This document shows positions 3,550 through 55,979 of a stretch of 64,000 bases of DNA, piece by piece. The translations under genes were made by a program, and so were the position numbers. The notes below the pieces were generated by a model. The model was not told the origin of the DNA. It was given only the letters and a program-made list of their open reading frames with translations, and searched no databases. Source of the DNA: Chrysomallon squamiferum. Lineage: Eukaryota > Animalia > Mollusca. Position 1 is the first letter of the stretch. Each line of letters opens with the position of its first letter. Where the stretch lies: the NCBI GenBank assembly GCA_012295275.1, contig CM022677.1, forward strand, positions 5,828,001-5,892,000, given 5' to 3'.

Positions 3550-5739
3550 GGTCTGTGTAAAAAAAAAAGACTTTAGTTTTTATAAATGATGTTAGAAATC
3601 CTTGATTACTGCTTTGAAAAAAAGTACACATTTTATATAAAGGTGTTTGATCCAGGGGAGATAATTTCATTTTTCTGTTTTATTTTTTGTATTTCTTAAT
3701 TTCATTTTTTTTTTTTTTAATCTACTGAATTATCTATACCAAGTATAAAATAACAAAGAACACTAAGACTTCTGGTAAAGATTTAGCCAATAAACTTATC
3801 TTAATAAAACATAAAATGGAAGTAGATAATTTTGTTTTTTTTTAAGATAAAATCAGAAATTATAAATTTTCTGAATAAATAATTTTCAGATTACAAGTTA
3901 TTTGTTATTTTTTTCTGTAAACAAATATCTTGGTATTTTTTATTTAATTAATTTGAATATTTTATTATTATACTTTTGTTGGACAGATCAGAAATCTTGG
4001 TATTTTTATATTTTACAGCACCCTTTGCTCTCATCTTTAAAACCTTATAAAACATTTTAAAACAAATTTAATTTAAAAGTTCAATTATACCATGCTTTTT
4101 TGAATTTGTAATTAAGGATTTTTATAACATTTTTCTAAAATTGTGTTTTTATATGAAAAAGTAGTTTTGATATAATTTGTTTTTTTGTCGTAATAAATAT
4201 TTCAAATTATTTTCTATTCTGTTTTGAATTTAATATTGTTAGCTAACATTATTAAACATCCTAAAGTGAGGAATATTTTTATTTACATAGTTTTGGTATA
4301 TTAACTGAAACTTGATAAACATTACAAATTCTTACATATTAGTAGCTGTACAAAATTATTTGAATTTTCTGATTCAGGTTGAGTGCATGAAATGTCCGTA
4401 ACACAGAGAGAAAAAAATCACATGCTAGTTTAGATTGTTTATTTTAAGAAAAGTAAATAAAATTTGATTACATATATTTATTTATTTATATTTCAAAAAT
4501 TGAAAAACAGATCTGTTAGGATATTTTCTTTACACTGTCAAACTAGAAGTGAAAACATCAGCCTAAGAGACACACACTGATGTACTGGGTGAACCAAAAC
4601 ATATTTTCTGAACATTAACACCTCATATTTCCTATGTCACAGTTTGATGTGTAGATTGGGAAAACAATTCCTGACTGCAGCACTGCGAGAAGACAGCAAC
4701 TGTTACAGTCTCTGATACTGCATTGTCCCACTCTGCTGTATGAGTCAGGTAAAGGACTAGCTCAGTCCTTCGTATCGTCAGTGTGGCGAGACATCACTCT
4801 CATGAAAACTGCCTTCCCAAGTTTCTGTCTCATCTTGTTCTGCTGTTTTCTTCTTTGTTTCCTTTCTCTTCTCGTCCAGCTTCAGTTTCAGACGTCACCT
4901 GCTCTTCAACTTCCTGGCTGCTGTGTTTGCCACCGTCATGCACTGTCCTCTCAGTCATCTGCCAAGTGCTTTCATTTGACAACATAACAAATGAAGTGTT
5001 TAAACAAACATCAGCTTATTTTCACAAGAACACAGACTTCAACAGCACTCTGCCGTTTACATGTTTCTGTCCATGTAAACCATCACAGAACCATCAACAT
5101 CGCTGTCTTCTGCAACAGGAACAGAGGGTAAGGAAACTTCAACACAAACATCCGGATTAATGTAAAACACTTCATAGCCTCTGTTTGCCATCTGACATTG
5201 ACCTTCACCTACATTATTTTCAGTTATCCGTGGTGTTAGCCGAGTGTCAGACAATGGACTGACACTTACTGGTTCATCTGACAGACAACTCTGTGTGGTG
5301 TTGAGGTCCAGAGAGGCAGTGGCTTCCGCAGTTATGTCCCCTTTGCTTGGAAATCCATCAGCTGTGACATGTGATGTATGAGGAAATTTCCTAGACATTG
5401 TTGGAGATGTTGTCCTGTTTCTTGGAGTTTTGTCTCTTTCCTGTGCTTTTCTTTGGCTGGTTTTAGCATTAAAGCTTCAAGTTTTTCTCCCTTATTGCTC
5501 ACATTTGACTGTTGAGATTGGTCACCTGGTGTAGTAACACTACAACTTCATGCTGACAGAGTTGTTGTAGTTGGACGTGGTCGGCTGCAGTGTGTGTTAC
5601 AAGTCAGGTAAACAAAACTGAGCTGCTCACTGGTGAAACTTTGACACAAGACTGCGTCGAATCTGATGTTGGACAAGAGCGAAAAACACACTGGTCTGAA
5701 TCTGACTGGTGAGAGCACCATCTCGTCTGTGTAAACAAA

Positions 5740-5895
5740 TAAATCAATAAAATACTGAATAAAATATTAAGTAAATAAACAAACATATAAAATACTGAAT
5801 AAACTATTAACTAAACAAACAAACAAATAAAATATTGAATAAAATATTAACTAAACAAACAAACAAATGAATAAAATAGTAAATAAAATAGTAAA
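5740..5895. repeat. Degenerate ~40-bp intronic tandem repeat
   Basis: aaatactgaataaaatattaa..aaacaaacaaa repeated about 4 times. Confidence 0.7.
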
Positions 5896-7047
5896 AAATG
5901 TATTAATCATTTTTCTTTCTTTCTCCCCCTGTTCAACTAACAACTATATTTTTATACTATTATTGTTATAACTACTACAACAAAAACAACTACTACTACT
6001 ACTACAACCACTACTGTTCCTGTTTCTACACCTACTTTTCATTTGACTTTTATAATTTCTCATTTAACTGTTATATACTCAAACTCCCTCTATTACTACT
6101 ACTATTGCAACAATAAATCTGCTATTAGTACTGCTCCTACTACTATAACTAGTACTATAACTAGTATGTTTCTGACTGAGTCACACAAGATTCATTATGA
6201 TCACAAAGCATCATCGGCTAAAATATCACCTATTAGTACAAACAAGAACTATTATTATTAAGTACTAATGCTATAACAACTACACTACTACAACAATGAG
6301 TTTACTACTACTACTGCTATTACTATAACAACAACAACAACCTCTGCAGATGATTCTGTTTCTGCCAGGCTAGTACAGATTCTGTGATGACATTTCTCTC
6401 CTGTGGTGAACTCACAGAATTACCTCTTCTTGTGTACTGAGCAGTTTCTGAAAAACAAGTTTTTATTTATTTACCTTTGTTGATACAAAATATTTCTCTT
6501 ACTCAATTCTTAGAATCATCAAATTATAGTGAAAACTAAGAGATGGCAAAATTAATTTTTAAACTTTCAGATAAAAACAAAATAAAGTGAACTGCATTCT
6601 GTGAGTTGAAAACAAAACAAGAAATGGTTTTCGTTACTCTTACTTGTGTCTTAGTACAAATATAAACTAACAAGAAATGAAACAATGCAAAAGGAAATAA
6701 GGAAATATGGAAGTAAACTAAGTTATCCTGCTATTTGTATACACAGTTAATTTACTTGTTATTGTAGACTATCCTTGCACTAATCTGTTTTTCTTACTCT
6801 GTATTGAGAATATTTCACCAATACCAAAACAGAGAAGAATGTCAGTAGATTGTTAAACAGAAAACTTAATGTGTGTGTTTTTCATACCAGTTTTTTTAGA
6901 AACTTCTCTGTCTGTCTGCTGTCTGTGTGTGTCCCATTCTGATGTTTAGGTAACAACACCTGTCTGTTTAGTGCTATGTTCCTATCAAGCAAAATAAAAA
7001 AATAAAAAATAAAAATTTTTAATGCCTTTATTAATAACATTATTTAC

Positions 7048-7081
<34 letters not shown>

Positions 7082-7921
7082 ATGCCATTTGCAGATACAA
7101 ATATATTTAAGCTATTTTATTTCAAATGTGCATGCATGCATTCAGACATACTGATGAACACATACAGTCTGAGGTAATGAATAATTAAAGATAAGTATAT
7201 TTTTAATATAGTCTAAACTCTTAATTTAAAAAAAATCGGTATCTTTTAAATATACATCATTATAACCTGATTATTGATAAATATAAATTCTGCTAAAATA
7301 AAGAAGAAATATTTTATTTAAGAACATACATCACATGTTTTTTACTAGTTCTTTGTATTTTAAAAGGCGAATAACAATAAAGCATTTAAAATTTTGTTTA
7401 ATATTAACTTTTGTTATTAGTAGCCTTCTCAAATACTGAACATTGTTTAAAGATCTTTCAAAGACTGAAATCATTCATTTTAAATAATAAAAATTGATTT
7501 ACATACATAAAAGCATCCCTCTAAATATACACTAAAACTGAATAGTATAAATCCCAATCTTTCCAGTACAATAATAAATTTCATAAATTAATATAATGAA
7601 AGATTAATTAAAAAATCTCACAAAACTTACTTTCTGCTTCCTGACCAATCAGAAGCTGTCCTGTCTCTGTCAGTTTTATCACTTCTATCCAGAAGAACTG
7701 CTCTGCAGGAAAGACTAACAGTTTTTCTCGTATTCTATCTCAGGTGTACAGGACGTCCTTGTAAGTGAAATTGAAAAATTGATGAGGCAAAGATTATATA
7801 AAGAATTAGGTATTCCTAACCCATCTTTCAAACATATGTCTAAGAAAAAATAAATAACAATCATGCAGTTAATATCTAATAATACAGGAAAAAATAAGGA
7901 GGATGATATACGACTGTGGAT

Positions 7922-7925
<4 letters not shown>

Positions 7926-8008
<83 letters not shown>
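7926..8008. repeat. (AG)n microsatellite
   Basis: Pure AG run; explains the ERERER ORFs. Confidence 0.97.
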
Positions 8009-8009
<1 letters not shown>

Positions 8010-10329
8010 ATGAAAATTTGTCTATACATTTTGTTGATTATAAAATTAAAAAACCAATGACAACTGTATATAAACTGTATATAAACATTCATAATTTAAT
8101 ATATGCTAAATTTTAAAGTTACCAACTGATTCATTATTTTATTTACAAAAGTTGTGTTTATTAAACTAACCATGAAAACTGAGAGGCTGCAGACAATAGA
8201 AACTACAGTACATTGTCTGCTATGTAACAGGAAAGTTAAACACTTTAAAATACTCATTCCTTTGTTTTAAAATACACAAATAAACATTTACAACAAAATA
8301 ACTGCATTTATATCAATGTAAGTATACGCATGTGTGTGTATGCATGTGTCTGTGGGTACGTGTATATGTCTCTGTGTTGGTGTGTGTATGTGTGTACTTA
8401 CTGATATATCATTTACAAACAGCAACTTCATATATTAAATTAAATTAAACTCCATTAGGTTTAGAATAATGAGAAATATAAAAGAAAACAAACTCAAATT
8501 CACCTGCTCAGAATTGTTCTCTTTTGCAATGGCAGCAGTACAAACTTTATTTAACCAGAAAATAACTGTGACCTCAGTGTCTGATGGAAGTTCACTGGAT
8601 GTGTTAAAAGTTGTAATTTGTCTGAAAGTTTAAAAATTTCTTGTTCAAAATGCTGAATGAAAAGTCTGAGGTGTCATTGCATATATGATAAATTATACAA
8701 AATGTGCAGCCCAGATTTCATTCTCCATCTCCCTCTGTTCTCTGTCTTTCCATCCTTCATCCTCTCTCCTTCCCTCATACATTCATACATTTACATATTT
8801 AATTGCAGTCATCATAATACTTCTCCTTCTTAGTGACCAAAGTAGAAGGATGAATGCCTTTAAATACACCTCAAAAATAAAATAAATTAACTTTAACACA
8901 CCCAAACAAACTCATTTTAATTAAAAAAATCATTCAAAGTTTAGCATTTAACAAGATAAAATTTTAAAAAAAATAAAGAAATAAATAAAAACAACATACC
9001 TGACAGCTTGAACAGCATGTTCTACTGAAACAATTTCACTGGCATATGCCAACATCAGCACATGAGTTAGAGCTGTACATGCATACCTAAAAAAGTAAAA
9101 AGCAATAATAAACAAACAGTTAGAAATAAATAATTAATACTTCTGACATGCTTTTGTGATTAATAAAGTATGTTACCAAGCAATGCAACAAAACAACAGC
9201 AAATAACTGATGATTATTACACTATTTTATAATTAATTAACAACTACTACAAAACTTATTTTACTCTCTAAGACACAAAAATAAAATAAACTTACAACTG
9301 AGAATGGTGCAGGCTACATGAGAATGGTTTCTGTAACAGCTGATTCATCCTTCTCCATGATGTAAATTCCCTTTCTAGACAACACCTGAATAATACTGCA
9401 GTGAGATACATAAAATATTTAACATCAATATTAAATATAAAGTTTAGTAATTTTTATAACAAAATGCATTTATCTGACAAATGTAGATCCATATATACAT
9501 ATATATAATTTTCTTTAATTATTGTTGCATAGATCAGTGCTTTTAAAGTTGCATTTTACTGCATGGTTTTTAGCATAATTGCTAAAGACAGATCTCTTCT
9601 CTCCAAAAAAGCTGTGGTTGGACTTACGTACCTTTGGCTGAACGAGATTACAAATTCAGGTGCTAAATTCAAACTAATATATGCTTGAAAAATAGTAAAT
9701 TAATGTTGTTGACCCTTATATTGCCTTAAGATGTTGTTTAGATTCTTGCTGAGAAATAGACTAAAAATGTATTTGTATGCAAACAAAAATACCAGCCAGT
9801 CTGTAGTTTTGTGTGTACTATGCTGCTGCAAGAGAAACAAATAACAAATAACTTGTATGTTACAAAATTTTCAAAAAAATAATTTTCATTATAAATTATG
9901 TATCAGAAAAAACAACCCAATAAAAACAGATTAAAATCACTCCAAGGTATCTTTGATAACTTTGATATGAAAAAGATTTTGAATATGTATCTGAATAAAA
10001 TTTACCTGCATTTTCCTTTCAAAATCAATGGAGAACCAGTAATTGATTTTGGTCATTTGACAACATAAACAAAGTGTATTATATACATATTAAAACCAAA
10101 GCTACATATATCCAAATAAAGCTTTTTATGCCTTCTAGAGCTGTAGTTACTTCCATTTGTTGATCTATTTCAATACAAACTTAGTGCTTTACCCATTCGC
10201 AAATTCGCTAGGTGGTAGTTTGTGCTTAGACATGAATGGCTCAGTCTTTGAGACAAGCATCTATGACTACTGGAAGGATCAACCAGATAGCTGCTCTTTT
10301 CTTTCTTTCTGGATTTTTTTTCTTTTCGT

Positions 10330-10650
10330 TTCGTTTCCGTGTGCCTGACCCGCGTCCAGCGAGGGGCACCCGTTGCAAGACCGTCGACGTGAGGTTTCGT
10401 TCCCTCGAACGCGCCGAGTACAGCGCAGTCATTCAGTCGAGTCGGCGGGCACGGTCCAGACCGAAGCGGGCTCCTGCGAATGGGGAGCGCTCGCGCCGAG
10501 TCTGTACCGAGCGTGCAGAGCCGGCCTCGCTGAGCGAGAGAGCGCGGAGATACATCTCCACGTCTTTAGGCTAATATTAGCAAACACTTCGCCAGACAAA
10601 GCTGTCTCGAGCCGAGTTCGTCTAAGCTGACCGCGAACGGTTTCTACGAA
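10330..10650 (+). other. GC/CpG-rich island, possibly an orphan terminal exon
   Basis: Abrupt GC- and CpG-rich block in AT-rich DNA, preceded by a pyrimidine tract, a cctgac branch-like motif and ccag (acceptor at 10358-10359). Two plus frames stay open to 10574 and 10630. No recognisable protein or RNA family. Confidence 0.35.
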
Positions 10651-17616: not shown

Positions 17617-18900
17617 ATGGACAAGTAAGGTAGATGTGTTAAACTAATAAAACAATTACTTATAGACAAGTAAGGTAGATGTATTAAACTAATAAAACTA
17701 TTACTTATAGACAAGTAAGGTAGATGTGTTAAGCTAATAAAACAATTACTTATAGACAAGTAAGGTAGATGTGTTCAGCTAATAAAACAATTACTTATAG
17801 ACAAGTAAGGTAGATGTGTTCAGCTAATAAAACAATTACTTATAGACAAGTAAGGTATTAAGCTAATAAAACAATTACTTATGGACAAGTAAGGTAGATG
17901 TGTTCAGCTAATAAAACAATTACTTATAGACAAGTAAAAAACTAATAAAACAATTACTTATAGACAAGTAAGGTATTAAGCTAATAAAACAATTACTTAT
18001 GGACAAGTAATAAAAAACTAATTTACTTATAGACAAGTAAGGTAGATGTGTTAAACTAATAAAACAATTACTTATGGACAAGTAAGGTATTAAGCTAATA
18101 AAACAATTACTTATGGACAAGTAAGGTAGATGTATTAAGCTAATAAAACAATTACTTATGGACAAGTAAGGTAGATGTGTTAAGCTAATAAAACAATTAC
18201 TTATGGACAAGTAAGGTATTAAGCTAATAAAACAATTACTTATGGACAAGTAAGGTATTAAGCTAATAAAACAATTACTTATAGACAAGTAATAAAAATA
18301 AAACAATTACTTATAGACAAGTAAGGTAGATGTGTTAAGCTAATAAAACAATTACTTATGGACAAGTAAGGTATTGTATTAATAAAACAATTAATAAAAA
18401 GGTAATTAAACTTATAAAACAAGTAAGGTATATTAAGCTAATAAAACAATTACTTATAGACAAGTAAGGTAGATGTGTTAAACTAATAAAACAATTACTT
18501 ATAGACAAGTAAGGTAGATGTATTAAACTAATAAAACAATTACTTATAGACAAGTAAGGTAGATGTATTAAGCTAATAAAACAATTACTTATGGACAAGT
18601 AAGGTAGATGTATTAAACTAATAAAACAATTACTTATAGACAAGTAAGGTAGATGTAAAACAATAAAACAATTACTTATGGACAAGTAAGGTAGATGTAT
18701 TAAACTAATAAAACAATTACTTATAGACAAGTAAGGTAGATGTAACTAATAAAACAATTACTTATAGACAAGTAAGGTATTAATGTATTAAAACTAATAA
18801 AAAACAATTACTTATGGACAAGTAAGGTAGATGTATTAAACTAATAAAACAATTACTTATGGACAAGTAAGGCAGATGTGGCTAATAAAAACAAGTAAGG
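17617..18900. repeat. Minisatellite, 45-bp unit with 39-bp variant (~29 copies)
   Basis: Unit gacaagtaaggtagatgtgttaagctaataaaacaattacttata; the variant lacks 6 bp. Produces the SISNCFISLTHLPYL ORFs. Confidence 0.97.
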
Positions 18901-22614: not shown

Positions 22615-25600
22615 TTTCAAAAGCAGTTTCTAATGTTTACATCTACACCTTTTTCACTCAGTGCTGTCACAATTTCTGTATTTTCGTGTTCAGCTGCTAG
22701 GTGTAAAACAGAATTTTCATCATTGTCTGTTAAATTAGGATCAGCTCCATGTTCCAGTAAATACAAAACTACTTTGTTCAAATATTCATGTCCTACAAAA
22801 TATAAAACTACTTTGCAAGGTTCGTACTTAACAGCTGAAAAAAGAGGAGTTTCACCTCAGCTATTCTTAATATTTACATCAAAACCTCGTACCACAGAGT
22901 GCCTAATTAAAATAGGATCAGCTCCATGTTGCAATAAATAGAAAACTACTTGAAATTTTTCATTGTACAGAAACTTATCACGTTCATCGTAAGTAACAGC
23001 TGAAAAAAGTGGAGTTTCACCTTTGATGTTTTTAATATTTACATCAAAACCTATTTCAATCAGTTTTGCCACAACTTTTATTTTTCCATATTTAGCCGCT
23101 AGGTGTAAAACAGAATTGTGATCATTGTCTGTTACATTAGGATCAGCTCCGTGTTGCAGTAAATACAAAATTATTTTACACTGTTCATACTTCAGAGATG
23201 GGTTAAGGTAAGGCCAACTAAGTGCTGTTAAAATAGCAGTTTCACCTCGACTGTTTTTAATGTTTACATCTGCACCTTTTTTAATCAGTGCTGCCACAAT
23301 ATCCATAGATGCATATCTAGCTGCTAAGTGTAAAACAGAATTTTTATCATTGTCTTTTACATTAGGATCAGCTCCATGTTCCAGTAAATAAAAAGCTACT
23401 TTGTTGAAACGATCAAACTCAGTTAAACACCAAGCTGCTTGGGTATCTTCCCAATGAACAGCTCTAAAAAGAGGAGTTTCACCTTTGATGTTTTTAATGT
23501 TTACATCAAAACCTTTTTCAATCAGTAATGACACAACTTCTATATATCCATGTTCAGCTGCTAGGTGAAAACAGAATTGTTATCATTGTCTGTTACATTA
23601 GGATCAGCTCCGTGTTGCAGTAAATACACAACTACTTTGCTTATTCTATTCCTAGTAGATCTCTCTATATTTCCGTAAGCAAGAGCTACGGAAAGAGGAG
23701 TTTGACCTTGGCTGTTTTTAATGTTTACATCAACACCTCTGTCAACCAGTTCTGTCACAATGTCAATAAATCCACATTTAGCTGCTAGGTGTAAAACAGA
23801 ATTATTATCATTGTCTCTTAGATTAGGATCAGCTCCGTGTTCCAGTAAATAAAAACACAATCTGTTCATATGCTCCTGTCCTGTTTCTGATAGATAGAAA
23901 AAGCATGTCTTCGTTTCATATTCAAGAGCTCTAAAAAGAGGAGTTTCACCTCGGCTGTTTGTAATGTTTACATCAGCATCTTTTTCAATCAGTACTGTCA
24001 CAAGTTCTATATTTCGTTCTCCGGCTGCTACATGCAAAAGAGAATTCCCATCTATGTCTATTACATTAGGATCAGCTCCATGTTCAAGTAAATAAAAAAC
24101 TACTTTGTTCTCTTTATACGTAACAGCTTTAAAAAGAGGAGTTTCACCTCGGCTGTTTGTAATGTTTACATCAAAATCTTTTTCAATCAGTACTGTCACA
24201 AGTTCTATATTTCGTTGTCCGGCTGCTACATGCAAAAGATAATTCCCATCTATGTCTTTTACATTAGGATCAGCTCCATGTTCCAGTAAATAAAAAACTA
24301 CTTTGTTCTGTTTATTCTCAACAGCTCTAAAAAGAGGAGTTTCACCTCGGCTGTTTGTAATGTTTACATCAAAATCTTTTTCAATCAGTACTGTCACAAT
24401 TTCTATATTTCCTTCTCCGGCTGCTACATGCAAAAGATAATTCCCATCTATGTCTATTACATTAGGATCAGCTCCATGGTCCAGTAAATACAAATCTACT
24501 GTGTTCTGTTTATTCTCAACAGCTCTAAAAAGAGGAGTTTTACCTCTAGTGTTTTTAACATTCACATCAACACCTGTTTCAATCAGTTCTTTCACAATTT
24601 TTATGTTTCCATGTTTAGCTGCTAGGTGTAAAACAGAATTGTTATTATTGTCTGTTAAATTAGGATCAGCTCCATGTTCCAGTAAGTAAAAAGCTTTTTC
24701 GTTCCAACAATTAGATCCTCCTTGTTTTAGTACTGTTACCTCTACATCATTATCAACAGCACTGAAAAGAGGAGTTTCACCTTGGATATTCTTAATATTT
24801 ATATCAGCATCTTTTTCTATCAGTTTTTTCACAATTTCTATATCTCCATGTTTAGCTGCTTCATGTAAAACAGAATTGTTATCATTGTCTGTTAAATTAG
24901 GATCAGCTCCACACTCCAGTAAATACAAAGCTACTTTGGTTTGTTTATGCTTAACACCTGTAAAAAGAGGAGTTTCACCTTGGCTGTTTTTAATATTTAT
25001 ATCAATACCTTTTTCAATCAGTGCTCTCACAATTTCAATATATCCGTCTTTAGCTGCTATGTGTAAAACAGAATTTTTATCATTGATTGTTATATTATAA
25101 TCAGCTCCATGATCCAGTAAATATAAAGCTACACTACATTTTACACTATCTAGAGATGAATAATGCCCATGGTCAGTAAGAGCTGTAACAAGGGGAGTTT
25201 CACCTCGACTGTCTTTAATGTTTACATCAGCATCTTTGTCAATCAGTGCTGTCACAATTTCTGGACTTCCATGTTTAGCTGCTTGGTGTAAAACAGAATT
25301 GTTATCATTGTCTGTTAATTTAGGATCAGCTCCATGTTGCAGTAAATACACAGCTACTTTACATTTTTCATCCGTCACAAATGTCTCAAAACGACAGAAA
25401 GGTAAAATCCTATCGAAATATTTACATTTAACAACTGCAAAAAGAGGAGTTTCACCTCGGATGTTTTTAACGTTTACATTAGCACCTTTTTCAATCAGTG
25501 CTGTCACAAGTTTTATATTTCCTTGTTCAGCTGCTAAGTGTAAAACAGAATTGTTATGATTGTCTGCTGAATTAGGATCAGCTCCATGTTTTAATAAATA

Positions 25601-27361
25601 TAAAGCTATTTCAATTGAGTCATTTTTCAGATGTAGATAACATTTATTGTCCTTTTTACATTTCATAGCTGTAATAAGTGGAGTTTCATCTTTATTGTTT
25701 TTTATATTTACTTCAGCACCTTTTTCAGTCAGTGCTGTCACAATTTCTATATTTCCATGTTCAGTTGCTAGGTGTAAAACAGAATTGTTATAAATGTCTG
25801 TTAAATTAGGATCAGCTCCACATTCTAGTAAACGTAAAGCTATTTCAGGACTGCTGTTGTATAAGGACAAATGTAGAGGAGTTTGTCCTTCAGTGTTTTT
25901 TACATTTATTTCAGCACCTTTATCTAACAGCTCTTTCACCAGATCTATGTCAATTTTAGATGCTATGTGTAAAACTGAATTCTTTTGTTTATCTGTTATG
26001 TTAATATCAGCACCATTTTCCAGTAAGAACAAAGCTACTTCCTTTCTGTGTGTCACTGCTTTTAAAGTTTTATGAAGTGGAGTTTCTCCCTCACTGTTTA
26101 CTGCATTAACATCAGCATTTCTCTTTATCAGTGATTTTATCATATCTATGTCTCCACGCAGAACTGAAATGTGGAGCGGTAAATCGGAAGGCAACAGACT
26201 AGGTTTAACTTCAAGCGATTCAGTTTTGAGAGGAATGTTGATGTCTATGATCATGAATGCATCAGGGATGTCTGGTGACATAATTTGCTGTTCAAAGTAC
26301 TGAATCAATTTCTCATTAACAGGTGCATTCATGTTTAGATCAGCTCCTTTATCAAGAAGACACTGAACAACATCTACACTGTTAAACATCACTGCTACTT
26401 TCAGTACTTCACTTTTCTTCCACTTGTCATTACATCTCTGCTCAATGAGAAAATTCACTGTATCAATACATCCCCACATTGCTGCTGCTAAAAGTACTTT
26501 ATCTTTGTTCTCATCATTTAAACAATCAGGTTTCAGTTTTACTATTTCTTTTATAACACTTGAAGTACTCTGACCAGCTGCAACGATAGCAATGTCTTTA
26601 GTTTTGTTTATTATATCAATGGTAACCAGTTTCTTAAAAAGATGACTTACATCAACATCTTTAATAGTCTTTGCCTTTTCAAAATGCAAATCACATTCCA
26701 CAATATGCCTGTCATGTAACAGAAATTTTATTTTTCTAAGAAACCTAATCAACAACAGTTTTACAGCTTTTATCTTGATTTCACTGTTTTCTTCCTCTTT
26801 GTTTATCATGTCAGCCAACAGACAGGCAATATTCATGTTACGTGAACAAATAGAAATATGTAACAAGTCTGAAATTACACACAGTTTTGTTTTCTTTTTA
26901 TTCTTGAACAATTCTCTAAGTATGATAACATTGTCTGTTTTTGAACCAACAGCTGCACAGAATGCATCATGTGTTGGAACAACACCTGATTTTATCATTA
27001 TCCTCACAATATCTTCATCACCAAAGAAACAAGATAAAATTAAAACTTTGTTTTTCAAATCTGTTTGTTCCATTTTACACAGATTTGATGTGAAACATTT
27101 TGACAATGTTTTTAGTCCATTTACAATGCAACGACTTGTAATAGATGATGTCTCTATAAAATTTTCATGAGCTTTCAAATACAGTTTTTCTCTGGAGTCA
27201 AATTTTGAATAATTGTCAAGAAGACATGAAATACTGCAAAATATTTCATTAGCACTGGAAACATTTACAAAAGATATATAACCGTATGGATATTTATCAT
27301 CATCAGAAGTATTTAACCCATAACTTTTTTTATATGGTTTCCTATTTAGTATTTCAGACAA
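22615..27361 (-). CDS. Helical linker plus ankyrin-repeat array (~16 two-repeat units plus degenerate N-terminal repeats) of the STAND-ANK gene; disrupted in this assembly
   Basis: ORFs 23561-27361 and 22857-23534 carry repeated GETPLF.A / YLL.HGADPN..D..NSVLHLAA..G..EIV..LIEKGADVNIKN. A 1-nt deletion at ~23567 (ctaggtg-aaaac versus ctaggtgtaaaac in the other units) separates them. TGA at 22857-22859 replaces the CGA of KNSRGETP, and ANK sequence continues past it to NIRNCF* near 22615. Confidence 0.95.
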
Positions 27362-28595
27362 CCTACCATAAAATTTTTTTCCTTTATGAGATATTTCAGA
27401 AACTCTTCATCTTTCAGTGATGGATGTGAAATAATTTCTATGAAATTCTCTGATGCCAGCAGGTCAGTAAATCTGCGAGCAAGAAAATCAAAGCAGTCAG
27501 GTCTCACATTCATTGTAATGTCACTTTTATTAGACACTCCAGGCGTCACAACATATTCTAACAACATGGAAACAGGACACACTTCTAGCAACTCTGCTGC
27601 TTTCTTTGGAAACTCTGATGAAAACATCAGAAACAAACAGTCAAACACAGACTGGTGAATAAATGTGTATTTATTGTCACAACACTTCAAATAGGTACCA
27701 CACATTGCATCAGCTGTTTTCTTGATATCTGTAAGATTAGTGTTTTTTACATTCAGACAGACTTGCTCTAGTTGTCTTACTAATTTCATTATGTCAGAGT
27801 CATTTTTAAATGGATCCAGTGAATCAATGCTGAGACTGCCTTGTTTGAACAAAATCATCAGTAGAACCAGGTAATTGAGCTGTAAAGATTTGTCTTTTTT
27901 CAAATTTTCCAGCCCTTGTTTGAGATATTCTATAGGTTTCTTAAAAAAGTCAACTCCTCTTTTCTGTGCATCACTTGAATTAACATAATACAAACACACC
28001 TGAGGAAATCCTAACTCTGTACATGAACTGTAAATGACAGCCTTTTTATCAGTTTCATCCATTTTAACATCCTTTTGTTTGAGATATTTGTTTAGAATTT
28101 CTTCCTTTTCATCATAAGTCAGACAACAGTCTTCACTCTGCAGATCAAGAACATGATTCTTTCTAAACAGATCAAATTCCTTTAAACTAGTTTCACTTTC
28201 TGAATATATTTGTTTTTTTAAAGTAATAATGCATTTCAAAAAACTATTCTGAACAAGATTCGAGATCTTTGGAAATTTGAGTTTCCATGAGTCTATAAAA
28301 TCTTTAACAAGATTAGTCTTACCAAATATATCATCAATGAGAACAACACACTTCTTATCTGTAGATACAGGGATGTCACTGAATTCAGAGTGATGAGTCA
28401 GCAAGTAAGATTCTCTTTTTTCTTCATTTTCTATCTGTCTCATCATGCTCAAAGCTAGAGTTGTCTTTCCTGAACCTGGACATCCTACTACAATCACAAC
28501 ACCATTCTTCTTCAAAAGTGCAACACCTCTTTTCTCTGCTCTTGTTTTAACATAGATACTCCAGTCAAATGAGTTTAACAGGAACCTGGTAGACT
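27346..28595 (-). CDS. nSTAND3-type P-loop NTPase domain (start of the large exon of an NLR-like STAND-ankyrin gene)
   Basis: Acceptor tacag at 28596-28600. Translation YVKTRAEKRGVALLKKNGVVIVVGCPGSGKTTLA (Walker A), VVLIDDIFG (Walker B), IIT, VLDL..LTYDEKEEIL, GFPQVC, DFFKKP, YTFIHQSVFD, which is the motif order of the nSTAND3 domains expanded in molluscs. Joins the ANK ORF by one extra base at the A7 run 27374-27380. Confidence 0.9.
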
Positions 28596-28827: not shown

Positions 28828-28860
28828 CTTTGATATTGGATGCTCGTTCACCAGCCTTTT
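28828..28860 (-). CDS. 33-bp coding exon of the STAND-ANK gene (EKAGERASNIKE)
   Basis: tttcag|...AAAG|gtattt; phase 1-1, in frame with the NTPase exon. Confidence 0.75.
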
Positions 28861-30090: not shown

Positions 30091-30153
30091 CCTCAGAGGA
30101 AGAAACATCTGTGTCTTCAGACATTTCTGAACTCTTTTCCTTATCCATATTGG
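30091..30153 (-). CDS. Probable start exon (ATG at 30148; MDKEKSSEMSEDTDVSSSE)
   Basis: catctcag|CCAATATG...GAGG|gtatga. It ends in phase 1 while the next exon needs phase 2, so a microexon, alternative acceptor or indel is missing from the model. Confidence 0.5.
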
Positions 30154-39759: not shown

Positions 39760-40822
39760 AATTATTATATGAAATTGTATTTGCATGTCTCATGTATTTA
39801 TCTTGTCAACTTTTTCTCGCATTTAAAAATATAGGATCACTACATTCAAATATACAGTGATATCATCTCCAATTTTGTTAAGATTACAAATATGACATTT
39901 TCTATTTTCTTTTAGAATATTAGACCATGGTCCACTTTTACTAGGAAGTTTAGCATTCGAGGTTCTAAATTTACATAACACATTAACTTTCTTTTTTTGA
40001 AAGTAAGATAGTTTTCTAATTTCAATCATTTTAAAAACAAAATATAATTAAAACCCTTTGAAGACGTGTCAGTTTGATTTTTCCATATTTGTTGATATTC
40101 ATCAGGTAAATATTTTGGATATCGTTTCACGTAACCATCTAACATTATCAAAGTTGTGATATGTCCATATATATGTTAAACCACAATCATCTAAAATATT
40201 TTTTACAAATCTGTTCAAGAAGAGTAGCTAACATGCATTAAATAATATAGGTGTGAGGAAATCTTGTTTTGGTTTTTCAAGTGCCTTCAAAAGGTTATCA
40301 TTCTTACATTTATAGAAATACAAAGAGGATACCGTCCTCGATCATAAACCAGGGGTACATTTAGTAACATTTAATAAATACTTACAAACTTTCATATGGA
40401 GTCTTTCTATTAGTTGTACATTTGCAAAACCCCATATTTTACAACCATACAATAAAACTCGCTGTATTAGTTTGTCAAATAAATGAAATACACAGTTGAT
40501 GGAGAGATTATTCTGACGACTTTCAGCTATTAGGCTATGCATAGCTTTCATTGCTTTGTTATATTGTTTTCTTACGCTGTAAATGAATAGACGGTTTCTT
40601 GTAAAATGTATGCCAATTATGTTTATAGTTATCTACTATATCAATAAACTCTCCATCAAATTTAAATATATAATCACTAGTTTTTCTCCTTTTACCAAAA
40701 ATCATTATTTTAGTTCTATTTGTATTAACTTTAAGTCTCCATTGTCGGCAGTAATTGGCAAAAATGTTAAGATTATGTTGTAGAGCATCCGGTGATTCTG
40801 CTAACAGTATTGTATCATCCGA
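39760..40822 (-). mobile_element. 5'-truncated, degraded non-LTR retrotransposon (LINE RT C-terminal half plus Cys/His motif; RTE-X-like, clade tentative)
   Basis: ORFs read SDDTILLAESPDALQHNLNIFANYCRQWRLKVNTNRTKIMIF, LFDKLIQRVLLYGCKIWGF..IERLHMKVCKYLL and LCKFRTSNAKLP..RKCHICNLNKIGDD; many frameshifts. Confidence 0.9.
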
Positions 40823-43508: not shown

Positions 43509-44690
43509 GTGGTTGTTATTTACATCTTCGGAACATAAGATTGAATCATTCGATATGTTTTTTTTACAAATGACAATGATATAGACGCATAATAATCTGA
43601 CTATTTTATAAGATAACTGAACATAGCATTCATTATTATTTTTACAAACTGCTCTTTTATCAACGTACACATCGCATCCATTATTGGTGTTTCGTTTTCA
43701 TTTTATGTTGCTGTTGTTGTTATAACCTGGTTTACTGTTAAACAGATACACAATCAACAGTCACAGCTAATAACAGTATAGTACAGACGTGCTTACCCGA
43801 GAAGAGATGGAAGTAAAACTGCAACTGCTTAGACTAACAAATTCACAGAAAAACATATGTCGTCTGCTTGTTCTGTCACTCATCAGCTTGAATACATTGA
43901 GTGATTTTGTTAAAAGACGACATGTCACAGGTTTGAGACTTACTATTATCTCTCTATCAAAAGTATTTTGGTTGCTGCTATTGTTTATGTTGTTATTACT
44001 GTTGTTGTTGTTTTGTTGATGTCATAATTAGTATTATTGTTGTTGTTTTTGTTATTATTATCATATTTGTTTATCTACCTACTTATTTGATTTTTTTATT
44101 ATTGTTTATTTTTTATTATATTTATTTTTGATATATACATCAGTCAAAAGACATATAAAACAACTACATATATATTCTGTTTATAGTCATACACATAAAA
44201 TAAAATAAACAAATAAATACCTCAAATAACAAAAGTATTCGAGGAAAAAAATTACGAAGTTCCTCAGACAGAAACGTTTCTGTGCTTTACTGATTGTTTT
44301 TCTATATTAATTAATTATTTTATCTACTTACTTAGTTACTTATTTATTAACTTATTAATTTAAATTCTATATTTCTACATACAACATGAATAACTGTTAC
44401 ACGACTAATTTGCACGTCTCATAGTTTTGACTCTGTATTTCCTAGTACAGTTCGTTCTCTATAAAGGTTTCACATTGTGTCCACAATCATCCACATCTGT
44501 TCTCTGGCTATTGAAGCTAAGAAAAGTTTTTGCATTATTTATTGCATGTTAAAAGCGACCCTGCAAACATACAGAAAATAAATCCTAGATCTGGACTTGT
44601 GTTTTTATTAATTTATTATTTTCATATTTCGTTTCATTTTATACATACATACATACATACATACATACATACATACATACATTCATACAT

Positions 44691-44734
<44 letters not shown>

Positions 44735-44999
44735 AGACCGTGTGTGTATATGTGTGTGTTTGCGGGTTATTTTCTGTCTACTTACAGTTGTTTTGTAGCT
44801 GTATGTTTTCTGCAATTCGTGTACATGTGTGTATGTTTGCTTATATTTGTGAATGTTATGTATGTATATGAGTTTCTACGGACGTGCTTCCGACCACTCT
44901 AGTTTAGAAAATTAAACAGTCACAGTAAATGAATGAAGGAAACGCAGACGGAAAATCAGAGTTTTTATACATTGTAAGAAAAATATAATGATGATATAT

Positions 45000-45312
45000 A
45001 AATTTCGAAACAAAGTTTTGTTCGAATTATGAAAGGAAAACATCATTTTGAAGTGAAATCTATGCTCTTTCAGATGAGATTACTTGAGCCTTTTTAACGC
45101 GAATGAGAACAATGCGGGCCAGAAACGTTCATTTTCTGATACGTAGAGAGGCATGCCACGCTGCTTGAGTGCGTGAAAGGTTGTGATTCTTCAAACAATA
45201 ATTAAAAATCACACATTTTCATAGAACAAAAACAAACACTGAAAGGAGGAAATGCGCAGTGCAGACGCCAATACCAAATTTATGCGTCTGCAAGAGGGAG
45301 TGATCCTTCTAG
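45000..45312 (+). mobile_element. Non-autonomous Helitron-like 3' terminus (second copy ~50160-50478)
   Basis: Stem-loop tgcagacgc-N15-gcgtctgca (45260-45292) followed 16 nt later by CTAG (45309-45312) and then T. The internal part is shared with 34232-34363. Confidence 0.5.
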
Positions 45313-45579
45313 TAAATTTCAGTATGTACATATTGTGATAAAAAAATTATTTTAATGGTTTTTCACTATTAAAAATATTATTTGTTATAATATTAATAAT
45401 AATAATAATAATAATTTTTCAAAGAAACTAGGAAAACATATATCCTTTACTATTATTATGATTATTATTAGTATTACTATTGTTGCTGCTGTTGTTGTTG
45501 TTACTGTTATTATTACTGACATCTTCCGAACAAATGATTGTACGATATCATTTTTTAAAATCTTCAAATGAAATTATAC

Positions 45580-45617
<38 letters not shown>

Positions 45618-46581
45618 AATAATAATAATAATTTAATAAATAAATAATTAAATACATTTTATTACACATTCTGAAAACAAACAGTATTTACTTTGATCTC
45701 GAAATTATTATTATTATTCAGAACATATGACTTTCTGTAGGATATCCTTTAAAAAAATATAAATGCTATATGATATGCATACATAATTAAAAAAAAAGAA
45801 TAATTATTTAAAAAAACATTAACATTTACAATTCAAAAACTCTTCACTGAATCATTTATTTATTTCAAAACCTATTTTATTATTTAATTAAGAAAATAAT
45901 AATCACTTGAAAAGTATTATTTTTTTTTTTTTTTTTTTTTTTGGCTTACTCGTGTCTACGTGACAAAACTCACGTTGTTTCTCAACTGTTTACGTCGCGT
46001 GACAATGATCTCACCTTAAAGTAACACTGACGTTGTTGATTTTTTCATTAAATTTTAATAATGAAAACGAATAATATTTATCCGTTGATTTAATTGATCG
46101 TATGGATGTAATTTAGTAAGTAACTCAATTTTGATTTTAAAAAAATCGAGACATTTGATAATGCGAAAGTTTCATAAACTTGTCCAAAATAATATTAATA
46201 AGAAGGAATTCCATACTAAACGATCAGAGATAAAGGGGGGGAGAAAAAAAAAAGCACTGTTAAAAAACCAAAAATGAATAAGAAAAAAAACAACAACAAC
46301 AAAAAAGACTAATAAACATACAGTAAAAGCCAGGAAGAAAAAAATAAAATAAAATAAAATAAAAAAGTAAATAAAGAAAAACAAAGAAAGATAAGTAATA
46401 AAGTTCATTTGACATATCTGTCCTGAATAAGAAACTAATCATGATTATTCTATACGTGTTTTAACTTCCTAAACCGACCCATTTACATCATTAATATTAA
46501 TTAATTTTAGTTTCCGTAGATATGTATTCCTCAAACGACTACTTTATGACATAACTGAACCACATATTTGATTGATTTATT

Positions 46582-46640
<59 letters not shown>

Positions 46641-46789
46641 CATCATCATCATACAACTTTTGTTTATACAAGATTTAGTATTATTCAATGAAAAAAAATA
46701 CAATAAAAGTTAATGAAACAAATAAATAATTATTTATTCATTTATTTATTTACTTATTTGTTCGTTTATTTGTTTTTTTATAATATATT

Positions 46790-47190
46790 TTAATTAGTTC
46801 GTAGCTGTTGATGTGAGTATTATTTTTAAATGAAAACGCAAACGTGAGCCATAAAAAAGAATAAAATAAAATAAAATAAAGTAATTAATTTTATCTTGAG
46901 AAATAAATAAACATTTAACAGTCACTACTAGTATTAGTGTAGTAAAATGTTTGCCTACCTGTGGATCGAAACTGAAGTAAAACTCGAATCTTGTCAACTA
47001 ACGAACTGACACAAACTCGACGCCGTCTGCTCGCTCTGTGAATCGTCCGCTTAGATACGTCATGTGATATTTTTGTAAAACGACACGTGACAGATTTATG
47101 CTTAGTGTGTTACTCTGGTTGCTTGGTGACAATGTAAACACGATCAGTTCTAATTACAGCATTTTTCAAACTGGTTTGTATACTTGCTCA
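46790..47190 (+). promoter_or_regulatory. Repeated promoter-like module A (E-box + RFX X-box-like + forkhead site); copies at ~51975-52370 and ~58005-58420, diverged at ~54175-54245 and ~57090-57190
   Basis: acgacacgtgac at 47080, gttgcttggtgac 47118-47130, tgtaaaca 47133-47140, then aaactggtttgtatac. The motifs are retained in the diverged 58-kb copy. Confidence 0.45.
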
Positions 47191-48070
47191 AAAAAATATG
47201 AGCAATATCAGTTTATTCTAGTAAGATAAATAAAGCTTAAAATAACAGACAGACAGACAGACAAACACAAACACAATTATAATTATTAACATTGATTTAG
47301 TACATCGAGCAAGGACGACTCCTCTGTTTTCGTGTTATAGAAGTCCGGGCAGACATTGTTTATTTTATTATTTATTTTATTTCTTTCTCACTTTGCGTTT
47401 AGTCTAGATTCAACCCTCTTGAAATGTTCCTACTAAGATACACTCGTAAAGATAATTTTATTTTATAACCTTCCATCCAACCCTACATTTCACATTAACT
47501 TATTCATTCATTCATTCATTCTTCAGTTAAATTATGTGCCAATTTCAGATAAAAATATTTGATACGCATATAATTGTAACAGTGATTATAATGATACATT
47601 TATTTTTTGTCGTACCAATATGCACCAGAGTTTCTTTCACTTTAAAGTGAGTCTGTGTCAATAAGAACAGATACTGTCTAGAAAAAAATCTTTTATGCAT
47701 CCAAGTTATTATTTGTTTGTTTAGAGCGACCTTTCATTACACAGAACAAAGTTTGACAATAACACTGTTACGAAACATTTGACTACTGTAGCTCCTCCCA
47801 GCTGAAATCGTAACGTTTTTTATTATTTTTTATTCTACACATTGTTGTCGTTCTGGGATATAGAACTTTTCATTATATGTATTTTGCTTCGTCGAATCAT
47901 AAATATTCGAAAAATAATATGTCTAAGTGATTTACATTTGTGAATTGTTGTATTTATATTTGTGACTTTCTTCAAACTGGCTCTTGAAAGAGAAAATCAT
48001 ATTCAATGTTGTTATTCTTGATTTTCAGACAATTTTATTCCTCCAAAAGTGAAATGTCTTTTTATACACG

Positions 48071-48103
<33 letters not shown>

Positions 48104-48342
48104 TGTTAGTGTTATTGTTATTATTATAAAGCCTGCAATAATAATAATAAATAAATAAATACACATCTCCTAGCAAATAAACTTTCTACCAACACGTGTT
48201 TATCTTTTTTAAATTATAATAAAGAGAAAAAAGAAATAACAAACATATTAAAAACAATAAGAATAAATTCCTCTGCTCATTTTGAATGCTTTAAAATCAG
48301 AAACTTCATTGTTGGAAAATAATGCGATTTCTTCAGTTGCGA

Positions 48343-50550
48343 TTTTTTACAAATGACAATGATATAGACGCATAATAAACTATTTAAAAGAAAAAATCAC
48401 TCTCGTAGCTCAACACAAAACGCTCCATTAAACCATTTATTTTTGCAACAAGTCAGATTTCATTTTCTATAATGAAAATAATAAACACTTATAAAACAAT
48501 AAAGTCTGTTTCTTTCCTAATTCATGTCTACCTGACAAAACTCACGTTATGTATTTTAAACTGGAGCGTGTCTAGATTTCGTGAAAATGATTTTGCTTCT
48601 TAATTGATCACAATACTGTATTTTAATAAATAATTTCATTTAATGAAAAGAAATTTAACAATAAACTAACTTGAATCTCTTATGACCGTTTGTCAAAAAT
48701 AATTTTGAAAAGTTAATTTCAGTTAGGTAGATTTTTAAATGGTCAGTTATTCCATAGACATTTTATTTCTCCATCGACTATTTTATAAGATAACTGAACA
48801 TAGCATTCATTATTATTTTTACAAACTGCTCTTTTATCAACGTACACAGCGCATCCATTATTGGTGTTTCGTTTTCATTTTATGTTGCTGTTGTTGTTAT
48901 AACCTGGTTTACTGTTAAACAGATACACAATCAACAGTCACAGCTAATAACAGTATAGTACAGACTTGCTTACCCGAGAAGAGATGGAAGTAAAACTGCA
49001 ACTGCGTAGACTAACAAATTCACAGAAAAACATATGTCGTCTGCTTGTTCTGTCACTCATCAGCTTGAATACATTGAGTGATTTTGTTAAAAGACGACAT
49101 GTCACAGGTTTGAGACTTACTATTATCTCTCTATCAAAAGTATTTTGGTTGCTGCTATTGTTTATGTTGTTATTACTGTTGTTGTTGTTTTGTTGATGTC
49201 ATAATTAGTATTATTGTTGTTGTTTTTGTTATTATTATCATATTTGTTTATCTACCTACTTATTTTATTTTTTTATTATTGTTTATTTTTTATTATATTT
49301 ATTTTTGATATACACATCAGTCAAAAGACATATAAAACAACTACATATATGCTGTTTATAGTCATACACATAAAATAAAATAAACAAATAAATACGTCAA
49401 ATAACAAAAGTATTCGAGGAAAAAAATTACGAAGTTCCTCAGACAGAAACGTTTCTGTGCTTTACTGATTGTTTTTCTATATTAATTAATTATTTTATCT
49501 ACTTACTTAGTTACTTATTTATTAACTTATTAATTTAAATTCTATATTTCTACGTACAACATGAATAACTGTTACACGACTAATTTGAAAGTCTCATAGT
49601 TTTGACTCTGTATTTCCTAGTACAGTTCGTTCTGTATAAAGGTTTCACATTGTGTACACAATCATCCACATCTGTTCTCTGGCTATTGAAGCTAAGAAAA
49701 GTTTTTGCATTATTTATTGCATGTTAAAAGCGACACTGCAAACATACAGAAAATAAATCCTAGATCTGGACCTGTGTTTTTATTAATTTATTATTTTCAT
49801 ATTTCGTTTCATTTTATACATACATACATACATACATACATACATACATACATACATACATTATATATATATATAAACACACACACACGAGACCGTGTGT
49901 GTATATGTGTGTGTTTGCGGGTTATTTTCTGTCTACTTACAGTTGTTTTGTAGCTGTATGTTTTCTGCAATTCGTGTACATGTGTGTATGTTTGCTTATA
50001 TTTGTGAATGTTATGTATGTATATATGAGTTTCTACGGACGTGCTTCCGACCACTCTAGTTTAGAAAATTAAACAGTCACAGTAAATGAATGAAGGAAAC
50101 GCAGACGGAAAATCAGAGTTTTTATACATTGTAAGAAAAATATAATGATGATATATAAATTTCGAAACAAAGTTTTGTTCGAATTATGAAAGGAAAACAT
50201 CATTTTGAAGTGAAATCTATGCTCTTTCAGATGAGATTACTTGAGCCTTTTTAACGCGAATGAGAACAATGCGGGCCAGAAACGATAGTACGTTCATTTT
50301 CTGATACGTAGAGAGGCATGCAACGCTGCTTGAGTGCGTGAAAGGTTGTGATTCTTCAAACAATAATTAAAAATCACACATTTTCATAGAACAAAAACAA
50401 ACACTGAAAGGAGGAAATGCGCAGTGCAGACGCCAATACCAAATTTATGTGTCTGCAAGAGGGAGTGATCCTTCTAGTAAATTTCAGTATGTACATACTG
50501 TGATAAAAAAATTATTTTAATGGTTTTTCACTATTAAAAATATTATTTGT

Positions 50551-50583
<33 letters not shown>

Positions 50584-51768
50584 TTAATTTTCAAAGAAAC
50601 TAGGAAAACATATATCCTTTACTATTATTATGATTATTATTAGTATTACTATTGTTGCTGCTGTTGTTGTTGTTACTGTTATTATTACTGACATCTTCCG
50701 AACAAATGATTGTACGATATCATTTTTTAAAATCTTCAAATGAAATTATACACAACAACAACAACAACAACAACAATAACAATAACAACAACAATAATAA
50801 TAATAATAATAATTTAATTAATAAATAATTAAATACATTTTATTACACATTCTGAAAACAATCAAAATATTTACTTTGATCTCGAAATTATTATTATTAT
50901 TCAGAACATATGACTTTCTGTAGGATATCCTTTAAAAAAATATAAATGCTATATGATATGCATACATAATAAAAAAAAAAGAATAATTATTTAAAAAAAC
51001 ATTAACATTTACAATTCAAAAACTCTTCACTGAATCATTTATTTATTTCAAAACCTATTTTATTATTTAATTAAGAAAATAATAATCACTTGAAAAGTAT
51101 TATTTTTTTTTTTTTTTTTTTGGCTTACTCGTGTCTACGTGACAAAACTCACGTTGTTTCTCAACTGTTTACGTCGCGTGACAATGATCTCACCTTAAAG
51201 TAACACTGACGTTGTTGATTTTTTCATTAAATTTTAATAATGAAAACGAATAATATTTATCCGTTGATTTAATTGATCGTATGGATGTAATTTAGTAAGT
51301 AACTCAATTTTGATTTAAAAAAAGTCGAGACATTTGATAATGCGAAAGTTTCATAAACTTGTCCAAAATAATATTAATAAGAAGGAATTCCATACTAAAC
51401 GATCAGAGATAAAGGGGGGGGGGAGAAAAAAAAAAGCACTGTTAAAAAACCAAAAATGAATAAGAAAAAAAACAACAACAACAAACAAACTAATAAACAT
51501 ACAGTAAAAGCCAGGAAGAAAAAAATAAAATAAAATAAAAGTAAAATAAAAAAGTAAATAAAGAAAAACAAAGAAAGATAAGTAATAAAGTTCATTTGAC
51601 ATATCTGTCCTGAATAAGAAACTAATCATGATTATTCTATACGTGTTTTAACTTCCTAAACCGACCCATTTACATCATTAATATTAATTAATTTTAGTTT
51701 CCGTAGATATGTATTCCTCAAACGACTACTTTATGACATAACTGAACCACATATTTGATTTATTTATT

Positions 51769-51818
<50 letters not shown>

Positions 51819-53251: not shown

Positions 53252-53284
<33 letters not shown>

Positions 53285-53520
53285 TGTTAGTGTTATTGTT
53301 ATTATTATAAAGCCTGCAATAATAATAATAAATAAATAAATACACATCTCCTAGCAAATAAACTTTCTACCAACACGTGTTTATCTTTTTTAAATTATAA
53401 TAAAGAGAAAAAAGAAATAACAAACATATTAAAAACAATAAGAATAAATTCCTCTGCTCATTTTGAATGCTTTAAAATCAGAAACTTCATTGTTGGAAAA
53501 TAATGCGATTTCTTCAGTTG
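48343..53520. repeat. Copy 2 of the tandem segmental duplication
   Basis: Near-identical to 43560-48340, apart from an extra ~400 bp at 48379-48776, an 11-bp indel near 50284, scattered SNPs and microsatellite length differences. Confidence 0.97.
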
Positions 53521-55900: not shown

Positions 55901-55979
55901 ATTGCATAGATCTGAACTAACAGCTCCCTATTTCCTTCGGCTTTATTACGACTACTACTACTACTATTATTATTATTAT

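Follow-up and report, generated by a model that had tools for sequence, protein, structure and literature searches.

What kind of protein carries an ankyrin array in which a shared scaffold is interrupted at one turn by inserts of differing length and sequence, and where do such inserts come from? These questions are raised by a minus-strand gene in a stretch of 64,000 nucleotides (nt) from the mollusc Chrysomallon squamiferum (GenBank assembly GCA_012295275.1, contig CM022677.1, positions 5,828,001 to 5,892,000), which we call the window and in whose coordinates all positions are given. A preliminary description had likened the inserts to the third complementarity-determining region (CDR3) of antibodies or to the inserts of lamprey variable lymphocyte receptors (VLRs). 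Our analysis of the sequence indicates that the gene probably encodes a diversifying STAND-ankyrin sensor whose length-variable inter-helix inserts are of local origin, similar in design to the fungal receptors with high internal conservation (HIC) of their repeats. The tests made do not place it among VLR or antibody-type systems.

A single large exon encodes an nSTAND3 NTPase, a helical linker and an ankyrin array, in that order (Table 1). The NTPase, which is absent from the preliminary description, was identified by a profile search (PF20720, score 92.1 bits, gathering threshold 27.2, covering positions 1-154 of 155 of the profile), and both the Walker A (GCPGSGKT) and Walker B (VVLIDD) motifs are intact in its translation. 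The exon is predicted to start at 28595. For the NTPase and the repeats to be read in a single frame, the run at 27374-27380 must have one base more than in the assembly. Superstructure-forming repeats lie C-terminal of the NTPase, as in NLR-like STAND proteins. A strict-sense NLR requires C-terminal leucine-rich repeats (LRRs), in whose place this protein has ankyrin repeats; the strict use of the name is discussed in PMC4986451. Since the nSTAND3 NTPase makes the protein an intracellular, NLR-like one, fungal STAND-ankyrin receptors offer the better analogy.

The array contains about 32 ankyrin repeats in 16 pairs, in which an A repeat (GETPL...YLL.HGAD) alternates with a B repeat (NNSVLH...). 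Only the A repeats vary in length, at the turn that joins helix 1 to helix 2, and none of the scored B repeats has an insert. Relative to the canonical 26-residue span, the loops of units 1-16 measure +2, 0, +12, +18, +9, 0, +13, 0, 0, 0, +15, +9, +13, +9, +9 and +13 residues; a long insert (9-18 residues) is thus present in ten of the 16 units, two residues in one and none in five. An insert had been claimed for every second repeat. All 11 peptides quoted for it are present on the minus strand between 22760 and 26080, but two of them, VKHKQTKVA and VENKQNKVV, are ordinary-length turns. The claim that the inserts keep the frame was confirmed in all 16 loops. The ten long loops have no stop in 180 codons, compared to 15.4 expected from base shuffles (stop-free in 0 of 5000), and the other two frames of the same DNA hold 15 and 28 stops. 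The long loops are also rich in aromatic residues (F/W/Y, 15.6% versus 10.0% expected from base composition, p=0.007) and in Cys (6.1% versus 2.6%, p=0.004), as had been noted. The scaffold, said to be nearly invariant, proved less uniform, with a mean pairwise identity of 64% for amino acids (53-92%) and 81% for nucleotides, and with 15 invariant columns among 60 (computed on 60 codons in the 12 units that are complete, with units 1, 2, 12 and 15 excluded as divergent or broken).

To trace the inserts, 27 nt of each were compared with the position where an insert-less unit has helix 2, a fixed-register test in which about 7 of 27 nt are expected to match. This comparison showed helix-2 ancestry for three of the ten inserts, those of units 11, 13 and 16 (Table 1), the other seven being individually not significant. 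Pooled, the +12 to +15 class (units 3, 7, 11, 13 and 16) gave 69 matches compared to 36.5 ± 5.0 expected, and 49 compared to 28.9 ± 4.4 when unit 16 was left out. A weaker 27-nt period was seen in the +9/+18 class (56 versus 43.8 ± 5.4, p=0.015). The inserts had been thought to differ completely, and those of equal length are indeed only 14% identical as protein, but in register their DNA is 47% identical versus 28% in shuffles (p=0.0005); by this measure equal-length inserts are homologous as DNA and not foreign. The simplest account of this pattern is that stretches of the adjoining scaffold were duplicated in frame a few times and then diverged strongly by point mutation, and we infer the same origin for the remaining inserts. 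Distances to the left and right of the loop show no correlation (rho -0.11), as expected from reshuffling but equally from a star-like history, and within the block of units 8-10 each pair differs at one synonymous codon versus 8-13 nonsynonymous codons.

Contigs from five of nine public runs (X1, X3, X5, X6 and X7, of which X7 is an RNA run) were compared with the window. At 85% likeness, 3830 contigs of X1, 2326 of X3, 2192 of X5 and 1047 of X7 fell on it. The summed depth of X1 over the NTPase was 3,759-9,485 compared to 72-160 for locus-specific pieces; such a sum does not give a copy number, but it indicates a large paralogue family, plausibly of tens of copies or more. Among the joints listed, all ten that span inserts in A-repeat loops are in frame, with lengths of 0 (four), +11 (four), +18 (one) and -3 (one), and +11 and -3 are absent from the window. 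This agrees with the variable repertoire that had been suggested. The unit 7 insert (24665-24874) is identical in the contigs of all three DNA samples of the 85% comparison, X1, X3 and X5, and the diversity is therefore inherited, in keeping with the germline encoding first proposed. At 97% likeness, where contigs may be alleles or very close paralogues, 40 of 42 differences are listed, and the change alters the amino acid in 11/11 cases in the loops, 16/20 in the scaffold and 8/9 in the linker. In the unit 13 loop, a related contig differs at six codons, all six amino-acid-changing. Differences are 2.4-fold denser in loops (11 in 597 nt versus 20 in 2633, p=0.019), but this contrast is not used as evidence, since scaffold differences are masked by contigs of paralogues and the figure is biased.

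These data also bear on whether the inserts are copied from donor cassettes or assembled somatically, in the manner of CDR3 or VLRs. Loose contig ends (22775, 24304 and 25612, at 85% likeness) and joints do cluster at insert edges, and the block of units 8-10 ends at a loop edge, as such copying might leave them, but the paralogue family accounts for the joints. No donor copy of the inserts was found in the 64-kb window, the best outside matches covering 11-15 nt with E values no better than 0.13; the search was limited to this window, which leaves some room for the alternative. The assembled contigs gave no sign of somatic assembly. The helix-2 ancestry of inserts and the identity of the unit 7 insert in three samples speak against it, as do the between-sample differences listed at 97% likeness, which are point changes with no length change within a loop. 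Lamprey VLRs are assembled in lymphocytes from donor cassettes and are surface-bound or secreted, whereas the array described here is inherited, has changed by local duplication and is likely cytoplasmic. We therefore regard donor copying or somatic assembly as highly improbable, and the CDR3/VLR analogy was not upheld.

Single-sequence AlphaFold2 models (mean predicted local distance difference test scores of 78.4 and 82.0) have the form of a regular ankyrin solenoid, and a fold search matched only ankyrin-repeat solenoids (ankyrins and DARPins). The inserts had been pictured as protruding, CDR-like loops. In seven of the nine modelled (units 3, 5, 11, 12, 13, 14 and 15), the C-terminal part is instead predicted to lengthen helix 2 to 16-19 residues, leaving a short turn that is often of low confidence; only the inserts of units 4 and 7 were modelled as long loops, also at low confidence. 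The inserts occupy an equal position in each unit and would therefore be aligned along one edge of the solenoid. The end of helix 1, which would lie beside this edge, is part of the usual ankyrin binding face. A variable protrusion on a repeat scaffold is a trait shared with antibody CDR3 and with VLRs, where the protrusion is the LRRCT insert. In engineered LoopDARPins the loop replaces the beta-turn, whereas the insert here is at the opposite, inter-helix turn. What LoopDARPins share with the array is an ankyrin scaffold to which a variable loop has been added, in their case for binding (PMC4384111).

Selection was assessed on the scaffold of 12 units with codon site models, in a custom implementation and on a poorly supported tree. 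The ratio of nonsynonymous to synonymous rates (omega) was 0.76 under M0, and M1a placed 46% of sites at 0.16 and 54% at 1. Under M8, 43% of sites were at omega 1.64 (M7/M8 p=0.010; M8a/M8 p=0.030). Fast columns include hairpin and helix-1 positions, which we take, from DARPin positions, to correspond to the usual ankyrin binding face. The nonsynonymous rate, dN, is about 0.9 in loops compared to 0.14 in the A scaffold, the synonymous rate (dS) being raised too. Only 3 of 15 changed scaffold codons are at conserved columns versus 48% expected (p=0.024), and the core is therefore still constrained. These results suggest, without proving it, that weak positive selection is favoured over pure drift.

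The NTPase search gave 10 matches among 6921 candidates, all of them nSTAND3 plus ankyrin, and among named proteins this region is closest to seven of Gigantopelta aegis (39-48%) and three of Haliotis (30-31%), which points to a snail as the likely host. The best-covering matches to the linker were the same G. aegis set and two other proteins of that type. The nSTAND3-ankyrin proteins of G. aegis and Haliotis (P0121-P0129) share the order of NTPase, linker and ankyrin repeats and have occasional long inserts at the same turn. Their ankyrin regions are only 24-30% identical to the array, and, unlike it, G. aegis-type proteins have 0-3 scattered inserts each and lack a regular homogenised two-repeat unit. 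According to a figure legend in PMC7895826, ankyrin proteins belong to the immune-related families that are expanded in G. aegis. P0122, P0123, P0126 and P0128 have short Gly/Asn/Val-rich stretches before the NTPase that are amyloid- or RHIM-like by eye. Protein searches found no same-species paralogue (best identity 35% among the long matches listed) and no close fragment among the short-protein matches listed. In a survey of 200 scored entries with at least 10 repeats, a sample biased towards the query in which 9/9 window inserts were recovered, the window array ranked first (6 of 21 repeats). A long ankyrin family in the same material (P0074, P0079, P0115 and P0116) has inter-helix inserts of 6-21 residues at matching positions with differing sequences, and may be an independent case of variable inserts. 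In the literature searched, which included few subscription papers, inserts of variable length were not found described for STAND-ankyrin genes of molluscs, and nSTAND3 is not mentioned in the excerpt of PMC8195603.

Fungal HIC ankyrin NLRs, such as Podospora Pa_3_8560, likewise have a STAND NTPase and a C-terminal ankyrin array, with similar repeats, fast-changing surface positions and repeat duplication (PMC4986451, PMC13449251). Where the ankyrin repeats of fungal NLRs are conserved, their number is polymorphic and their concave face is under positive selection (PMC4986451), and diversifying STAND-repeat receptors, some with nSTAND domains, are reported outside fungi as well (PMC13449251). 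In fungal NACHT-ANK proteins (Lactarius and others), every other repeat also has an insert at this turn, mostly of +5 to +7 and near-fixed, in contrast to the range of 0 to +18 here. Other differences are that Podospora repeats measure 33-36 amino acids and that the fungal NTPase is NACHT, whereas the present protein is an animal one with nSTAND3. High internal conservation is defined as more than 85% identity over 100 amino acids (PMC4986451); the array, at its mean of 64%, falls below this, and only units 8-10 approach it (maximum 92%). Similarity to the consensus, by a calculation other than T-REKS, is 0.76 on scaffold columns with loops omitted, compared to a Psim of at least 0.7 in PMC13449251. 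The candidate ROCO-LRR and NB-ARC-TPR receptors of Ectocarpus are similar in combining an NTPase with an array that undergoes unit shuffling and positive selection, but there each repeat is a fixed-length exon, whereas the array here lies in one exon and varies in length too (PMC3341825).

We favour, at somewhat better than even confidence, the explanation that the gene encodes an nSTAND3-ankyrin intracellular NLR-like sensor in which point-mutated inserts, born of helix duplication, set the binding of each family member. Duplication of 13 or 9 codons of the adjoining helix would create an insert; versions that broke the frame or carried a stop would be purged, and amino-acid changes would build up fast. 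Unequal crossing-over of the 198-nt unit would copy and reshuffle units, within and between paralogues. Most inserts are predicted by the models to lengthen the outer helix by two to three turns and to add a short flexible turn, and by the general geometry of ankyrin repeats they would line one solenoid edge beside the usual binding face. Ligand binding would switch the NTPase on, and the signal would pass via an N-terminal domain, as in fungal NLRs; no such domain was found in the window. A role in binding and immunity is likewise our inference.

Several results weigh against this explanation. The fixed-register test was devised in the light of an earlier free local comparison with the helix-2 consensus, in which only unit 16 was significant (p=0.003) and units 7 and 13 were near 0.05. 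PHI-type recombination tests were not significant (p 0.08-0.79), and upstream scans of the minus strand above 28600 found no RHIM-like or domain-sized effector exon. M2a did not improve significantly on M1a (p=0.10), tree support was low, and outer helix-2 positions are also among the fast columns. For the inserts, a pairwise codon fit gave an omega interval of 0.05-3.4. The proportion of synonymous differences (pS) is higher in loops (0.42-0.57 versus 0.17), which older age or misalignment would account for without selection. The nonsynonymous share in the array, 27/31 compared to a neutral 78% (p=0.16), is no higher than that in the linker. In addition, the assembled copy carries two frameshifts, whose short forms are possible. 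The diversifying selection proposed earlier for the inserts is not demonstrated by the insert omega, and the listed loop substitutions agree with it; for the scaffold, positive selection is suggested by M8 against M8a and not by the M1a/M2a comparison.

The failure of M2a to reject M1a, which has no positive class, would also suit tolerated filler, that is, slippage inserts at a permissive helix 1-helix 2 turn where selection acts on nothing but the frame and the sequence is free to drift with no binding role, on a scaffold that looks conserved owing to its structure and to units duplicated recently. In the loops, pN/pS is 0.97-1.33 with intervals that span 1, and four other proteins in the survey also have at least four insert lengths at this turn. 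Only one other kind of insertion is as common in ankyrin repeats as that between the helices, and the same source reports that the inter-helix region is enriched in binding contacts, with 15% of binding residues in insertions (PMC4687027). Against filler, the aromatic and Cys enrichment exceeds the expectation from base composition, the inserts are strictly in A repeats, M8 beats M8a, and 16/16 changed loop codons among the differences listed are nonsynonymous (10 + 6; a probability of ~0.02 at 78% each). We consider filler unlikely, though a serious competitor. If the inserts are neutral, the array would still be a clean example of repeat proteins gaining new structure.

A further alternative is that this copy is a dead, decaying pseudogene whose variability reflects lost constraint. 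Its frame is shifted twice, 60 nt are deleted and a TGA stands at 22857-22859, and 35/40 listed differences among near-identical contigs are nonsynonymous, near or above the neutral share; the frameshift near 23568, the deletion and the TGA are further points absent from the preliminary description. Both frameshifts, however, are probably assembly errors in homopolymer runs that are one base short. The longer forms are present in contigs of three to four samples, and a non-coding run at 22569 has the same one-base shortfall compared to X1, X3 and X5 contigs. At 97% likeness no insertion is recorded at the first run, nor in X1 at the second, where its depth at 23567 is 76. The late stop is real. 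An X7 contig, with four differences elsewhere, bridges both deletion and stop; unit 16 therefore lies behind a stop, which removes only the last unit and a half of the protein. The frame up to this TGA is likely, though by no means surely, intact. The absence of stops in 180 saturated loop codons and the 15 invariant scaffold columns also argue against decay, as do the RNA-library contigs, which cover the gene at a depth of 13-634 compared to 0-4 in the flanks and are not proof of transcription. Decay would at most be the recent fate of one copy and not the origin of the inserts, and we judge it very unlikely as their explanation. In the terminal repeat (22650-22811), summed contig depth is very high even at 97% likeness. 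The last unit of the family seems strongly conserved or homogenised, though it is behind a stop in this copy.

A broader reading, possible but doubtful, extends the favoured sensor to an inherited, anticipatory library of intracellular binders in the snail lineage. Tens or more nSTAND3-ankyrin paralogues, each with at most 10 helical protrusions born of helix duplication, positively selected and reshuffled at the insert edge, would recognise intracellular microbes or symbionts. If true, nature would have in this library its own version of the ankyrin binders engineered to bear loops. Molluscs are without antibodies, and their recognition of intracellular microbes is poorly known. The well-described diversifying STAND-repeat sensors of fungi change by point substitution and by the shuffling of repeats whose length hardly varies; the animal family would add variation in length and shape at one site, with a traceable mutational source in the adjacent helix. 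It may thus serve as a model for receptor diversity without somatic rearrangement, and natural inter-helix inserts could be useful in the design of ankyrin binders.

Table 1. Features of the nSTAND3-ankyrin gene, in window coordinates; loop lengths are in residues.
Feature	Position	Strand	Evidence or remark
Candidate upstream exon, 63 nt, phase-preserving, Ser/Glu-rich	30091..30153	-	sole match of splice-site scans
Micro-exon, 33 nt, AG...GT, phase 1, in frame with large exon	28828..28860	-	predicted, putative splicing
nSTAND3 NTPase and subsequent helical region, first part of large exon	27349..28595	-	profile match, translation
Frameshift 1, T7 run, one extra T in contigs of 3/4 runs (X1, X3, X7)	27374..27380	.	
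Linker with degenerate ankyrin-like helices, also in G. aegis-type family	26200..27348	-	sequence comparison
Ankyrin array of 16 repeat pairs (core of 198 nt, to which the insert is added), without introns	22620..26190	-	profile search, unit alignment, models
Unit 3 loop, +12	25610..25663	-	helix-2 likeness alone p=0.08, not significant
Unit 4 loop, +18 (2 x 9), modelled as long loop	25358..25429	-	alignment, model
Unit 5 loop, +9, 3 amino-acid-changing differences in X1	25133..25177	-	alignment, contigs
Unit 7 loop, +13, same in X1, X3, X5	24698..24754	-	alignment, contigs
Recent 198-nt tandem block, units 8-10, without insert, 89% match, ends at unit 11 loop edge	23922..24692	-	
Unit 11 loop, +15, decayed in-register helix-2 copy, 14/27 nt, p=0.004	23861..23923	-	
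Unit 12 loop, +9	23636..23680	-	unit alignment
Frameshift 2, A4 run, one extra A in contigs of 4 samples (X1, X3, X5, X6)	23568..23571	.	
Unit 13 loop, +13, decayed helix-2 copy, 16/27 nt, p=0.0002	23400..23456	-	
Unit 14 loop, +9, X1 and X5 differ	23175..23219	-	contigs
Unit 15 loop, +9	22950..22994	-	unit alignment
Unit 15 B repeat, 60-nt deletion, TGA at 22857-22859 (most units CGA or CAA)	22857..22916	-	in reads
Unit 16 loop, +13, behind stop, clearest helix-2 tandem copy, 20/27 nt, p=0.0002	22773..22829	-	

That the 63-nt candidate exon belongs to this gene is a guess. The window as a whole is AT-rich, with many microsatellites, and has no Rfam match at the gathering score. A stretch at 10170-10330 on the minus strand resembles by eye what we take to be a decayed 5' end of 18S rRNA, and the translations of 40386-40576 and 61099-61413 resemble fragments of reverse transcriptase of the long interspersed nuclear element type. 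A decayed paralogue fragment at 57634-57918 contains part of an ankyrin B repeat and upstream sequence like the start of the large exon, at 67-82% to the gene. Larger repeats are a tandem duplication of ~4.75 kb (43595-48339 and 48773-53520, 97.9% identity), which is either a true duplication or unmerged haplotypes, and a ~0.9 kb repeat (54997-55903 and 62567-63481, 86% identity). Downstream of the gene, at 17617-18890, lies a satellite with 45-, 129- and 180-nt periods, whose unit holds AG and GTAAG splice-like words.

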